Shown here in pieces: positions 1-3,885 of a stretch of 3,885 bases of DNA; position 1 is the first letter of the stretch, and each line of letters begins with the position of its first letter. The DNA lies in NCBI GenBank assembly GCA_027452085.1, contig DAIDHG010000072.1, positions 1 through 3,885 of the forward strand, given 5' to 3'. Position numbers: made by a program. The stretch comes from a bacterium (lineage in GTDB: Bacteria > Babelota > Babeliae > Babelales > JABCYS01).

Positions 1-3000
1 TAAGTCGAATAACGTAGTCGCCAGCCTCCTTAAACTCAAGCACGACTGTTTTTTTCTCACCTGCGCGGGCAGCATAGATTAAATTATTATTATCCAAGTG
101 ATCCCTCCATCTGCATCGCAATCAACCGGTTAATCTCCACTGCATATTCCATAGGCAGTTCACGCACAAATGGCTCAATAAACCCATTCACCACCATCGC
201 CTGAGCCTGTTGAGCCGTAAATCCACGGGCGGTTAAATAAAAAAGCTGCGCTTCATCAATAGCATTTACCGAGGCTTCATGGCCAATATCCGTATCGGAT
301 TGAGCCACCTGGATGGTCGGATAGGTATCTGAGCGAGAATGCTCATCAAACATTAATGCATCGCATCGCACCCGGGAAATAACATTGTGTGCCCCTTTTA
401 TTACCTTGAGCAGGCCACGATAACTCGTGCGGCCTCCATTCATGCTCATCGATTTTGAAATAATATTTGAGGTGGTGTAGGGTGCCAGATGGATAACCTT
501 TGCGCCAGCGTCTTGATGTTGGCCGGCGTTAGCGCAGGCAATCGATATGATTTCCGCCTTTGCGCCTGGCTCTTTCAAAATAACTGCCGGATATTTCATG
601 GTCACTTTGCTGCCAAAGTTGCCATCAACCCATGCCACTTGTGCGTTGCGAAACGCCAAAGCTCGTTTCGTGACTAAATTGTACACGTTATTGGACCAGT
701 TTTGGATGGTGGTATAGCGGATATAGGATCCGGGTAGTGCCACCAGCTCTACCACCGCGCTGTGTAATGAAGCTGAAGAATGCAGGGGGGCTGAGCAACC
801 CTCGACGTAATGCACTGAAGATCCTTCGTCGGCAATAATAAGAGTGCGTTCAAATTGCCCCATACGCTGGGCATTAATTCTAAAATAGGCCTGTAGCGGC
901 ATATCCACCTGAACACCGGGCGGAATGTACACAAAAGAACCACCAGACCATACGGCACTGTTTAGCGCCGCGAATTTATTATCATCCGGTGGTATAACAG
1001 TGGCAAAATATTTCTTGAAAAGTTCCGGATACTGGGCCAACCCTTGATCAGTATCAACAAATATGACCCCTTTGGCCACCCATTCTTCTTTTAACCGCTT
1101 ATAAATAATCTCAGACTCATATTGCGCCCCCACGCCGGCTAAATAACGCTGTTCAGCCTGTGGAATCCCCAATTGATCAAAGGTAGTTTTTATATCAGTA
1201 GGCACATCGTCCCATGAGCGGGATGATTGCTGTATTGGTTTGAGGTAGTAACAAAGGTCTTGGATATTGAGATCTTTTAAATCGGCGCCCCATGAAGGCA
1301 TGGGGCTATGCTCAAATATTTCCAAGGCACGCAAACGAAATTCCAACATCCATGCTGGCTCATTTTTTTGCCTGCTAATTTCGATAACAATCTCTTGTGT
1401 AAGACCGTTTGGTATCTTGAAATAGGCTGACTCGGCATTATTGTTATGCTCTACCATATTTTTGCACGCGTGCCCTGTTATTCAAGCCCATGAAACGGAA
1501 AAGAAGATTTCGGTATTGTATACCAAGCGCAGACTATTAAAAGGTTAATTACGGTAGCTGCTATTGCCGGCAAGAATGTAACCGCTGCAGCGCTTGGTCA
1601 GCACGATCGTTGAACTCTTTTTGTTCTTGCGCTTGTACGAGCGCACTGCTCATCGGCATCTGCTCTGGGCAAAGCAATGCTTTTACCTTATGGTGAGGAG
1701 TTTCTTTATTGAGCCAACAATATAACTTCAATAAAGCTGCCGAACGATGGGCATCGTCAGCGCGATGAGTTTTCAATAATTCCTCTGCCTCTTGTGCCAG
1801 TTCTTGAGCTTGAGCATCATTCAAACGAATAAAGTTTTTTTCACGAGACCTGAGCAGATTTTCATTTTCATACACCTCTGAACGCGAAGCAATATTTACA
1901 ATGCCAATCGCCTGTTGCGCAGGCAAAATCTTGTAGATAATACGGTAATCACCGATACGTTTTTTCCAAAGACCCGCAAAGCCGGCCAGCTCTTGTGCAT
2001 CAGTCTTTGTATAATTCTCGCTCAACTGTTCGATGACCGCCTTTATTCGTGATTGATATGCCTCAGGTGCAGCAGCAATAGTTTGATAAGGATCTATCAC
2101 CATATGGGGAGGCACAATAGATCCCGGGGTTGATCGACCAGTTTCATGTGCTGGCGACATACGATTTTCAGCTTCTGGCGTTCCCTGCCTTTCTTGCTCA
2201 ATCGCCTTAACTTTTTGTTTTGCTGCAAGAATAAATTCTTTAATCGCTGGATTTTTTTGTTCTTCAAGCAAACCAATAATAGCCTGCGCCTCCTGCAATC
2301 GAGCATCGGTTGGCTTCAGCTTAAATGCTTCCATTGCCTGTTCAAAACGAGCCATTAAACCATCTGACACAATCTTGTGATACTGCTCCTGCATCGATGT
2401 GATACGTTTGAGCAGTTCAACATCCGTAATGGTCTTCAATTTTAGGTCATCAAGTAGTGTTTGAACGGTTTTGAGATCATCTTCTCTCAACGCTGAATCA
2501 ATGGATGCAACTATATTTTGCGCTTGAGCATTATGTTGCACCAACAGCTCTTTTCTTTGCATTGAAGCCTCTTCAGCTTCTCTGGTCGCCACGATCTTTT
2601 GTTCAGCGATTTTCTTGGCCATGGCATCTTTTAATAACTTTATTAATCGCTTATTTGATCCAAACTTCTCCTGAGCCATACTTAATGCAGTTTCACCATA
2701 TATGCTGTGCATCAGCGGATTTGCGCCCTTCGTAAGCAAGAGCTCAACGATATCGGCGTAGCCACCAACAGATGCCATCATAAGCGGGGTATAATTTTCC
2801 TTTGAAATGGCATTAATGGTTGCTCCTTGATCAATTAAATAGGCTGCAACATCGTGACAACCGCTTTGTGCTGCCTCCATTAACGTCGTTTTGCCTTCAT
2901 AACTTATGGCATGAATATTCGCGCCTTTTTGCTGCAACTTTTTGATCAAATCAAGATCGCCATGATCAACTGCCGAAAACATCGGGGTAAAGCCTTCGTT

Positions 3001-3885
3001 GTCAGTTGTATTAACATCGGCATTTTTTTCTAATAACAAGCGTACTGCGTCTGATTTTTTGAAATCAATCGCTTGATGCAAAGCTGAATTACCCTTCTCG
3101 TCTTTTAGATTAACGTTAGCTTTATTGCGCAATAATAGCTCTACAAACTCTAGTGACCCACGTCTTATTGCACCCATCAATAAACTATTACCCCACTTAT
3201 CTTGAGCGTTTATGCTTGCCCCTTTTTTCATGTATTCAGCTAATTCTTTTGCTGTTAATGATCGATGAAAGGCTGTAAGAATCATCTGAAACTCAAGCTC
3301 AGAGCAAACTTTAAAGGCACTTCGCCTCTTTTGTATCTTTTTCTCTTCATCACGAAGCAATTTTACAATATTAGGGTAGCGACCAATTTTACTGAGAATT
3401 TGGGTAATGGTTTTACCATCATTTCGCTTCATTGTTGGATCAGCATGATGGGCCAGTAATTGTTGAACGAGCTCAAGATGTCCATTCTGGCTGGCTATCA
3501 TAAGCGCTGTTTCGCCAGTTCCATGATCGAGCTCATCAATATATAAACCCTGTTCCAAATACCAATGCAATTTATCGGCTAGTTTGCCCGTCGCGGCATC
3601 TTCCAACATAGGCTTAGCCAGACGAGTCTTTATTTGAATTTGTTCCGCCGATAAGCAGGTAGCATATATATGCGTATTGACGCCAACAAACAGGGGCAGA
3701 AATAAAAATAATAAATAGTAGAACATGTTTTTTCCAATGTTGTCGTTTGTAATTACTGTATCGTCAAAATCTGGCCATTTTTTATGAGCAACTGTGTATC
3801 GGGCCGAATTGCCTCAATAAGTCGCGTATTATGTGTAATTAATAAAGAAGAGAATTCAGGATCATTCTTCCTTAAGGAATTAAGC

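Follow-up and report, generated by a model that had tools for sequence, protein, structure and literature searches.

The closest described systems are the free-standing RelE mRNA interferases of type II relBE loci. Those compared here (E. coli RelE, P. horikoshii aRelE 1wmi, M. tuberculosis RelE1/RelE2 9g12/3g5o and T. thermophilus 2khe) have the same fold and order of elements as the module described below, and share with it the motif R-x-G-D/N-Y-R-I-x-Y ... R-x-x-V-Y, which includes the equivalents of R61, R81 and Y87, the residues of RelE that are critical for cleavage (Neubauer 2009, PMC2807027). The fold also occurs in larger proteins. Tox-RelE is the toxic part of Sec-exported multidomain polymorphic toxins, in which R61/R81-type residues define the active site; it forms the very C-terminal end of the chain, behind RHS repeats and a HINT peptidase, is paired with Imm54 and is read as an interbacterial weapon (Zhang 2012, PMC3482391). 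Multidomain BECR toxins, in which a RelE/ParE domain is part of a larger protein, are described by Gerdes 2025 (PMC11980606), where multidomain proteins with no identifiable antitoxin were set aside.

Legionella AnkX, the Bartonella Fic effectors and Rickettsia VapC are cases of a toxin–antitoxin-type fold exported against eukaryotic targets. Their fold differs from that of RelE, as does their chemistry (Fic, PIN), and they are delivered through type IV secretion or another route. Fic is related to Doc, and the Bartonella Fic effectors are toxin–antitoxin-class toxins that act on hosts. Rickettsia VapC is described as a toxin–antitoxin toxin acting on the host, and AnkX, in which ankyrin repeats are joined to Fic, acts on host GTPases (Yeoh 2015). 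A literature search, noisy since 'rele' also matches release and relevant, returned neither a RelE-type example of a toxin–antitoxin toxin acting on a host nor a description of an ankyrin-, Sel1- or TPR-RelE fusion. The terms ankyrin, TPR, signal-peptide and 'secreted' are absent from the main text of Gerdes 2025, as are ankyrin and Sel1 from the consulted part of its supplements, where at least two of the five mentions of Dependentiae belong to one row, for a short YafQ toxin. The leader–ankyrin–RelE architecture likewise had no earlier description among the papers searched. The novelty proposed in the survey's finding was drawn too widely, exported multidomain toxins with a RelE domain being already published as Tox-RelE, and host-acting toxins of toxin–antitoxin origin as Rickettsia VapC.

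In this work we analysed a window (the whole stretch of DNA, 3,885 nucleotides) which carries on its minus strand, as do all features given below, a CDS at 1561..3726 encoding 721 amino acids plus a stop codon; its start is supported by the relative P0002, which begins MIYYILFLL. The ORF check and Pfam bear out the earlier description of this frame as ankyrin repeats with a RelE/ParE module, and Pfam and AF2 both point to a RelE/ParE-superfamily fold that is complete and lies within a repeat protein with a leader. The protein is composed, in this order, of a signal-like leader, about eight to nine ankyrin repeats, a three-helix bundle, a flexible linker and the RelE/ParE-superfamily module. 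The first ankyrin block (3343..3615, residues ~38–128) holds 2–3 repeats, with the best Pfam Ank match at 71–100 and motifs read from the sequence; the second (2611..3294, residues ~145–372) holds 6–7 repeats, with Pfam Ank_2, Ank_4 and Ank_5 over 161–371. Five ankyrin families match residues 47–371 in Pfam (E 1e-44 to 9e-31). The best NCBIfam equivalog for the named Legionella Dot/Icm ankyrin effectors (AnkH, AnkY, AnkX and others) scores 98 bits against a cut-off of 600, and all such matches are confined to the repeats. The conserved bundle (2182..2424, residues ~435–515; helices 5–39, 43–58 and 62–84 of the AF2 model, pLDDT 91–97) is present in every fused relative aligned, while the Pro/Ser/Thr/Glu-rich linker (2104..2181, residues 516–541, pLDDT 50–75, devoid of secondary structure) varies in length and sequence between relatives. 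After the module comes a helix (1810..1863, residues 622–639; AF2 helix 191–208, pLDDT 94–96) that occupies the place of the RelE C-terminal helix and contains the near-invariant R628 (R197 of alignment A1, at least 90% conserved). The helical C-terminal tail (1564..1809, residues 640–721) is a shortened form of the 200–330 aa TPR-like tail of P0002 and of the paralogs in the sister genome G084, whose tails match Pfam TPR families. In contrast with the free-standing RelE toxins, the module lies inside a leader-bearing repeat protein with no antitoxin gene, is preceded by a bundle and linker and followed by helices, and carries in its first strand a family-specific invariant D-P motif.

The module (1867..2103, residues 542–620) consists of a strand, two helices and three strands. 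ParE_toxin PF05016 matches residues 551–619 over profile positions 23–89 of 89, scoring 32.7 bits where the cut-off is 23 (E 1.1e-7; 37.8 bits and E 2.1e-9 in the genome-wide scan). An earlier poor AF2 model (pLDDT 60, 6 sequences) is superseded by one built with 117 sequences (residues 432–721, pLDDT 87.5); this model and that of residues 432–640 (pLDDT 90.1) both display the BECR-fold order of a strand, two helices, a three-stranded sheet and a C-terminal helix. The top Foldseek matches are RelE of Thermus, M. tuberculosis, M. jannaschii and P. horikoshii (target-normalised TM 0.65–0.77, rmsd 1.9–3.5), and VIA-align superimposes the module on RelE 2khe with Z 8.6 and rmsd 1.9 over 81 residues. 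Among toxin chains of the PDB, phmmer with the module and hmmsearch with a 24-sequence family profile matched only RelE-type mRNases (P. horikoshii aRelE, 7e-6, M. tuberculosis Rv2866, E. coli RelE and M. jannaschii RelE3). The nearest sequence relatives of the module are free-standing toxins of 63–127 aa. The free-standing toxin reported in the same genome, at C5:10740-11027, is genuine: it has 95 aa and an 86-aa partner ORF upstream, and shares 27% identity with the module when the two are aligned (E 7e-8). On sequence comparison and modelling, the module is RelE-type, not ParE-type.

In a HMMER alignment to wild-type E. coli RelE, R595, R615 and Y619 (codons 1942-1944, 1882-1884 and 1870-1872, all checked) fall on R61, R81 and Y87, the R81 rather than R83 register hinging on a 2-residue gap; the equivalents of K52 and K54 can be aligned only approximately, and basic residues are kept at K52/R56-like positions. 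R595, R615 and Y619, together with D545, R590 and Y598, are invariant in 24/24 fused relatives, which share 21–46% identity. Six module residues had earlier been listed as invariant, L39, L57, G63, R66, R86 and Y90, which correspond to L568, L586, G592, R595, R615 and Y619; in the 24-sequence alignment the last three are indeed invariant and L568 and G592 are conserved at 90% or more, but L586 is not among the reported columns of at least 90%. All 21 pairs of G084 paralogs give a module dN/dS between 0.014 and 0.273 (median 0.127), which shows that the module is under purifying selection. We give an even chance to the reading that the 1561..3726 product is a Sec-exported, host-directed translation toxin, a modular protein whose active part would be a RelE-type, ribosome-dependent mRNA endonuclease, with catalysis predicted.

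The same exported repeat protein could carry a RelE-derived module that does not cleave and serves in RNA, ribosome or protein binding, or as a scaffold; the conserved Arg and Tyr residues could act in RNA or ribosome binding without cleavage. The first 22 positions of PF05016 are unmatched, no NCBIfam RelE/ParE model matches the whole protein at E <= 1, and in the AF2 model the module is internal, flanked by helical domains. With 540 residues before it and ~100 after, it could be hindered in entering the A site if the protein stays unprocessed, and the protein showed no recognizable processing site; the Asp-Pro pair D545-P546, considered as a cleavage or release site, was rejected because it follows the first strand and caps the first helix of the AF2 model, inside the fold, so that a cut at this point would destroy the domain. 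Catalytic residues of this kind are usually lost from inactive derivatives, whereas here the three that are critical in RelE persist in all 24 divergent members, with basic residues at the K52/R56-like positions and a dN/dS of ~0.13. We regard a non-cleaving module as unlikely.

The gene is located in the housekeeping suf operon. Downstream, after 103 bases that hold no listed ORF, lies sufB on the same strand (90..1457, 455 aa, Pfam SUFBD_core E 7e-78), and 27 bases upstream of the start codon is the 3' end of sufC (3753..3884, the last 43 codons and the stop). The ORFs that this upstream fragment matches in G166 and G130 are SufC TIGR01978 (E 7e-96 and 4e-93), and the 5' part of sufC forms the start of contig C75. 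The caveat that a partner gene might lie beyond the contig end is settled, as the 159 bases past the gene hold the last 43 codons of sufC; since the break is inside sufC, additional paralogs collapsed beyond the contig end are likewise ruled out. With sufC on one side and sufB on the other there is no room for an antitoxin gene, in agreement with the survey's finding that none accompanies the module, and the adjacent cognate antitoxin gene that characterizes a type II toxin–antitoxin system is missing. No antitoxin Pfam family was found in any of 60 ORFs of 45–260 aa lying within 1.5 kb of the fused genes of G022, G015, G217 and G252. No second copy of the whole protein was found in the genome by tblastn, the other matches falling in ankyrin repeats of C37 and C2. 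Scans for promoters and for terminators gave about as many hits as chance (8 vs 7.9 and 5 vs 4.2).

The bundle–linker–RelE core forms one clade in which heads are swapped between ankyrin, Sel1 and TPR repeats. Of 261 Babeliales genomes five have it, while another, G252, has an independent leader–ankyrin–RelE fusion outside the main clade; the previous count of 4 of 61 genomes becomes 6 of the 261 of the order with long fused frames, our own included (G000, G084, G022, G015, G217 and G252). The amplification to seven genes in G084 stands, but not as one tandem run: four are upstream of sufB and three lie between a sufD-like ORF and sufS; the paralogs are packed 10–15 bases apart. In G015 the RelE-core gene is in a tandem array, the sibling genes of which carry Sel1 repeats, end in a RING finger at the place of the RelE core and share their leader with the RelE-core gene (~81% identity over 37 residues). 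The RING finger is a eukaryote-type ubiquitin-ligase domain. In G022 the RelE-core gene is flanked by small ankyrin proteins with hydrophobic, signal-like N-termini. These RING-finger and ankyrin neighbours are seen in other genomes and are absent from the context of our own locus; together with the independent fusion of G252, they make host direction the best reading of the sequence context, as had been proposed, with export, catalysis and host target of the RelE module being predictions. To have the toxin aimed by its ankyrin repeats, as had also been proposed, is too narrow a reading, because the same core sits behind ankyrin, Sel1 or TPR heads.

The putative signal peptide (3661..3726, residues 1–22, possibly cleaved after IYA) is in a strongly hydrophobic N-terminus, MFYYLLFLFLPLFVGVNTHIYA, with a 12-residue Kyte-Doolittle mean of 2.82; no other 19-residue segment of the protein exceeds 1.6 on that scale. 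It has a hydrophobic h-region and an n-region with no basic residue, and many relatives have leaders whose n-region is positive and whose c-region is of the A-T-S type. An N-terminal hydrophobic leader is present in 21/26 relatives, the five others being G084g, which is cut by a contig end, and P0008, P0012, P0014 and P0020, which may be fragments. The genome (92.9% complete) holds three secretin ORFs and two type II/IV-pilus ATPases, and no VirB4, FHIPEP or VipB was found in it. We know of no Dependentiae protein for which passage of the outer membrane and entry into the host cytosol have been shown. Sec and type II components are reported from published Dependentiae genomes, and signal peptides from 78% of the ankyrin proteins of C. 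destructans (Deeg 2019, Yeoh 2015).

The combination of variable, sensor-like heads and a constant toxin core would also suit a single-chain abortive-infection or defence toxin, whose head senses an invader and relieves cis-inhibition so that RelE stops the cell's own translation. Multidomain BECR toxins were proposed as defence proteins (Gerdes 2025, PMC11980606), no antitoxin gene is present and the conserved flanking helical domains could inhibit in cis. PADLOC does match PDC-M72A, Ankyrin and MzaA, but all three within the ankyrin repeats and uninformative on the module. The leaders of 21/26 members, with the short h-region and basic n-region typical of cleaved signal peptides, and the RING domain of the sibling genes argue against this role. 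Moreover, Pfam and NCBIfam give no antitoxin-like domain and BLASTP no likeness to the genome's own antitoxin (E 9.6). The same Pfam and NCBIfam searches gave no sign of an antitoxin origin of the bundle, the lone VapB line (E 0.077, residues 547–590) being treated as noise. The single-chain models of residues 432–640 (pTM 0.56 at a pLDDT of 90) and 432–721 (pTM 0.61) do not dock the bundle on the module with confidence, and speak neither for nor against cis-inhibition. A defence toxin is in our opinion quite improbable.

If the protein is instead a host-directed translation toxin, its leader would pass the unfolded chain through Sec, so that the toxin would never fold near its own ribosomes, which would explain why an antitoxin is dispensable. 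By a secretin-based, type II-like machine, by vesicles or by lysis, the protein would then cross the outer membrane and enter the protist host, where the interchangeable repeat head (ankyrin here, Sel1/TPR in relatives) would bind a host protein or structure. The linker-tethered RelE module would enter the A site of host ribosomes and cut the A-site mRNA codon via R595, R615 and Y619, shutting down host translation. E. coli RelE cuts mRNA on eukaryotic ribosomes (Andreev 2008, as described in passages citing it). Export, host delivery, catalysis and the ribosome as target are all steps that we infer.

An exported toxin might act on bacterial-type ribosomes outside the producer, in competing intracellular bacteria or in host mitochondria. 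The bacterial ribosome is the natural substrate of RelE (Neubauer 2009, PMC2807027), Tox-RelE occurs in Sec-exported polymorphic toxins (Zhang 2012, PMC3482391), and a relative that has been cultured lives surrounded by the mitochondria of its host (Deeg 2019). Unlike Tox-RelE proteins, however, the 1561..3726 product has an ankyrin head, with Sel1/TPR in relatives, on a constant core, and, unlike their producers, the organism is an intracellular parasite of protists. Pfam detects only ankyrin and PF05016, no RHS, filamentous or HINT part, the module is internal, and sufB follows the gene in place of an immunity gene. No route into another bacterium or the mitochondrial matrix is known, and the partners (ankyrin, Sel1, TPR and RING) suggest targets in the eukaryotic cytosol, which leaves bacterial-type ribosomes a highly improbable target. 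Poisoning of DNA gyrase or a host topoisomerase by a ParE-type module is scarcely credible despite the Pfam name ParE_toxin and the presence of ParE 5ceg among the structural matches (Foldseek rank 40, TM 0.54), since PF05016, in which true mRNases are found, also includes E. coli RelE, no ParE chain was matched in the PDB by phmmer with the module or hmmsearch with the family profile, and the RNase-type catalytic residues present here are absent from ParE toxins (Gerdes 2025, PMC11980606). Between the two actions put forward by the survey's finding, the RelE-only PDB matches and the invariant equivalents of R61, R81 and Y87 favour translation over topoisomerase.

We hold it plausible, at somewhat less than an even chance, that a RelE freed of its antitoxin by Sec export and mounted on an interchangeable head (ankyrin, Sel1 or TPR) cleaves host mRNA in the 80S A site, in a RING-swappable, cassette-like effector family; on this joint reading the fusion may have arisen at least twice in Dependentiae. 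With such a protein, a ribosome-dependent mRNA endonuclease would for the first time be seen acting on a eukaryote as a secreted effector. The Dependentiae, protist parasites that are widespread and almost uncultured, have many exported ankyrin proteins of no known activity. The RelE reading, if true, would give one ankyrin family a concrete biochemical function, the shut-off of host translation via A-site mRNA cleavage, would extend RelE biology from self-poisoning toxin–antitoxin modules and interbacterial toxins to attack on eukaryotes, and would show how an intracellular bacterium keeps a potent toxin with no antitoxin. The constant core, swapped heads and RING siblings suggest modular effector building, which could guide annotation of other Dependentiae repeat proteins.

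The structural matches of the bundle are generic helical bundles only. A likeness to the N-terminal domain of Not5/CNOT3, a ribosome E-site binder, was discarded, as its VIA-align Z of 9.0 is below the noise level of ~13 for helical bundles, and in the ESM Atlas residues 380–535 score at best 0.77, with an unnamed cluster, below the lead level. Weak second core-HMM matches lie upstream of the main match in P0008, P0002, P0011 and P0015, and the helical spacer between the repeats and the bundle (2434..2610, residues 373–431) may correspond to the weak upstream bundle copy seen in some relatives.

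The window is an entire contig of 3885 bases (C72), one of 88 in a 0.98-Mb genome whose gene content, as far as examined, is consistent with a Dependentiae (TM6) bacterium. It carries three features, all on the minus strand: sufB (90..1457, assigned by Pfam), an ORF of 721 amino acids (AA) at 1561..3726 supported by Pfam and, at 3753..3884, the last 43 codons of sufC, which run off the contig end and were recognized by their matches to SufC C-termini. The 721-AA protein begins with a strongly hydrophobic leader, beyond which a hydrophobicity scan detects no second membrane-like segment. 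Pfam places ankyrin families across residues 47–371 and ParE_toxin (PF05016) at residues 551–619 (32.7 bits, cut-off 23), and the survey's finding of a leader, ankyrin repeats and a PF05016 domain in one protein therefore holds. For the 43 terminal codons, matches (E <= 1) were found at the C-termini of ORFs of about 250 AA in 32 of 40 other genomes searched; the two of these ORFs that were examined are SufC (TIGR01978, E 7e-96 and 4e-93), and in one genome (G166) sufC directly overlaps sufB. The 5' part of sufC is found at the start of another contig (C75:13-534), with about ten codons missing between the two contigs. Since the terminal codons are those of sufC, continued on C75, the ankyrin-RelE gene lies between sufC and sufB: it is inserted in the suf iron-sulphur operon, 27 bases from sufC on its upstream side and 103 bases from sufB on its downstream side. 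The reported absence of an antitoxin gene is thus borne out, as the contig end is sufC and no partner gene lies beyond it. Contig C75 also carries a type II/IV-pilus ATPase gene (C75:1931-3058, minus strand; PF00437, E 1.6e-125), about 1.4 kb upstream of the 5' part of sufC, which places it some 2 kb ahead of the ankyrin-RelE gene once the contigs are joined.

The sister genome G084 does carry seven such genes, as the survey had it, but not in a single tandem run: four are upstream of sufB, and the other three separate a sufD-like ORF from sufS (L034/L035, G084:C7:300000-332220), with spacings of 10–15 bases. Around the fused genes of four other genomes (G022, G015, G217 and G252), none of the 60 ORFs of 45–260 AA within 1.5 kb belongs to an antitoxin family. 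Elsewhere in the window's own genome there is a free-standing RelE-type pair (1208-1755 of L002, G000:C5:9273-12515), in which the stop of an 86-AA ORF overlaps the start of a 95-AA toxin; no family assignment was obtained for the 86-AA ORF, and the antitoxin of this pair does not resemble the 721-AA protein (E 9.6).

When residues 501–721 were searched against 1.84 billion representative proteins (E <= 1e-3), 131 matches were returned, 23 of at least 179 AA and 108 free-standing toxins of 63–127 AA. The long relatives share a constant core, composed of a three-helix bundle of about 85 AA, a variable linker rich in Pro, Ser, Thr and Glu, a RelE module whose first strand is followed by an invariant D-P, and then a helix with a conserved Arg. 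The sole long relative lacking this core, P0069 (220 AA), has a RelE/ParE module at 140–217 behind an N-terminal hydrophobic segment and possibly represents the transmembrane 'ToxM' type of Gerdes (2025). The heads that precede the core are of ankyrin, Sel1 or TPR type. Among the G084 paralogs the heads are 30–43% identical in most pairs and the cores 60–95%; paralogs a (ankyrin) and f (Sel1) share 85% identity in the core and, over only 158 AA, 39% in the head. In a FastTree built on the module alone from 23 fused and 94 free-standing sequences (14 short matches, P0008 and P0015 excluded), which is in substance unrooted and whose free-standing set was picked by similarity to the query, the fused modules form one clade with a support of 0.84, or 0.97 with two sequences added. 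A PF05016 scan of the order gave matches in 88 of 261 genomes; frames of at least 500 AA occur in only six of them (G000, which is the window's own, G084, G022, G015, G217 and G252), from three GTDB families, G084 holding seven of these genes, and among the other matches listed all frames are of 39–147 AA.

The 546-AA protein of G252 (L048, G252:C1:448500-454000, 2509-4149, minus strand) combines a leader with ankyrin repeats, a Thr/Ser/Pro-rich linker and, at its extreme C-terminus, a RelE module. Because it has neither the bundle nor the D-P motif, and because its module is not placed in the fused clade, it is an independently formed fusion on the same principle. An IS4/IS5-type DDE transposase gene (1544-2293 of L048) adjoins it.

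In an alignment of 24 fused relatives, 21–46% identical to the window protein, D545, R590, R595, Y598, R615 and Y619 are invariant, and P546, L568, W587, K/R588, G592 and R628 are conserved in at least 90% of sequences. HMMER pairs R595, R615 and Y619 with R61, R81 and Y87 of wild-type E. coli RelE, the choice of R81 or R83 depending on a two-residue gap; R61, R81 and Y87 are critical for cleavage (Neubauer 2009, PMC2807027). NCBIfam RelE models give no match to the whole window protein at E <= 1. Among the seven G084 paralogs the dN/dS of the module is 0.014–0.273 in all 21 pairs (median 0.127), and the module therefore looks like a working enzyme, the lack of an NCBIfam match notwithstanding. 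That it is a non-catalytic binding domain derived from RelE appears unlikely.

Leaders were detected by hydrophobicity in 21 of 26 relatives; many of them, read by eye, have a basic n-region, an h-region of 12–15 residues and a c-region of A-T-S type. Of the five relatives without a leader, G084g is truncated by the end of its contig, and the remaining four are possibly fragments. In the window's own genome there are three secretin ORFs and genes for two type II/IV-pilus ATPases; VirB4, FHIPEP and VipB were not found in it, which at 92.9% completeness does not prove that they are absent. Components of the Sec and type II systems are reported from published Dependentiae genomes, and signal peptides from 78% of C. 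destructans ankyrin proteins (Deeg 2019; Yeoh 2015). In G015 the RelE-core gene belongs to a tandem array (L037, G015:C3:25000-35000, 5883-9942) whose other members encode Sel1 repeats followed by a RING finger (zf-RING_2, E 6e-9 to 5e-12); these siblings and the RelE-core protein are about 81% identical over their first 37 residues, a common leader, which suggests that C-terminal warheads are exchangeable within the array. As a RING finger only makes sense within the eukaryotic ubiquitin system, the RING siblings are the strongest contextual clue to host direction. On eukaryotic ribosomes, E. coli RelE has been reported to cut codons in the A site (Andreev 2008, cited in later papers).

The window protein could well be a Sec-exported, host-directed translation toxin, a reading that we hold with about even confidence. 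Export would take the place of an antitoxin, the repeat head would confer localization, and the linker would allow the RelE module to reach the ribosomal A site. The placement of the bundle relative to the module is not confident in single-chain AF2 models, which have a pTM of 0.56 and 0.61 despite a pLDDT of 90 and 87.5. A single-chain defence toxin kept under cis-inhibition is a doubtful alternative, as both the leaders and the RING siblings count against it, and there is at best a slim chance that the target is a bacterial-type ribosome, of competitors or of mitochondria.

Within the survey's proposal of a poison of translation or topoisomerase, the RelE alternative is the one that stands. 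The Pfam name ParE_toxin is misleading for this module, PF05016 being reported to include E. coli RelE itself and an entire subcluster of mRNases (Gerdes 2025, PMC11980606). Among PDB toxin chains, phmmer with residues 533–629 matched RelE-type proteins only, and a profile built from 24 fused relatives matched aRelE (1wmi, 7e-6), Rv2866, E. coli RelE and M. jannaschii RelE3, none of its toxin-chain matches being a ParE. With 117 sequences, AF2 gave a confident model of residues 432–721 (mean pLDDT 87.5), in which the module runs strand, helix, helix, three strands, helix. RelE structures head the Foldseek list (TM 0.65–0.77), the first ParE, 5ceg, coming at rank 40 (TM 0.54), and VIA-align gives HigB2 with Z 9.2 and T. 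thermophilus RelE with Z 8.6 (rmsd 1.9 over 81 residues). Sequence matches, fold and catalytic residues all point to a RelE and not a ParE type, and a ParE-like topoisomerase poison is hardly credible.

Toxin–antitoxin-class toxins of other folds are known to act on hosts. RelE domains have been described, as Tox-RelE, in exported multidomain toxins with RHS, HINT and Imm54 (Zhang 2012, PMC3482391). A survey of multidomain BECR toxins set aside those without an antitoxin (Gerdes 2025, PMC11980606); ankyrin, TPR and signal-peptide terms are absent from its main text, and ankyrin and Sel1 terms from its supplements as far as examined. Our literature searches found no description of a leader, ankyrin, Sel1 or TPR repeats and RelE in one architecture.

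The best VIA-align matches of the bundle (2182-2424, residues 435–515) are to the Not5/CNOT3 N-terminal domain (Z 9.0), a score within the noise of the tool for helical bundles; the Not5/CNOT3 domain binds the ribosomal E site. Weak additional copies of the bundle unit lie upstream in P0008, P0002, P0011 and P0015. The tail of the window protein (1564-1809, residues 640–721) is about 200–330 AA shorter than those of P0002, its closest relative, and of the G084 paralogs, which have TPR-like repeats in this part; as sufB starts 103 bases further on, the long tail was lost, or never gained, in the window protein.
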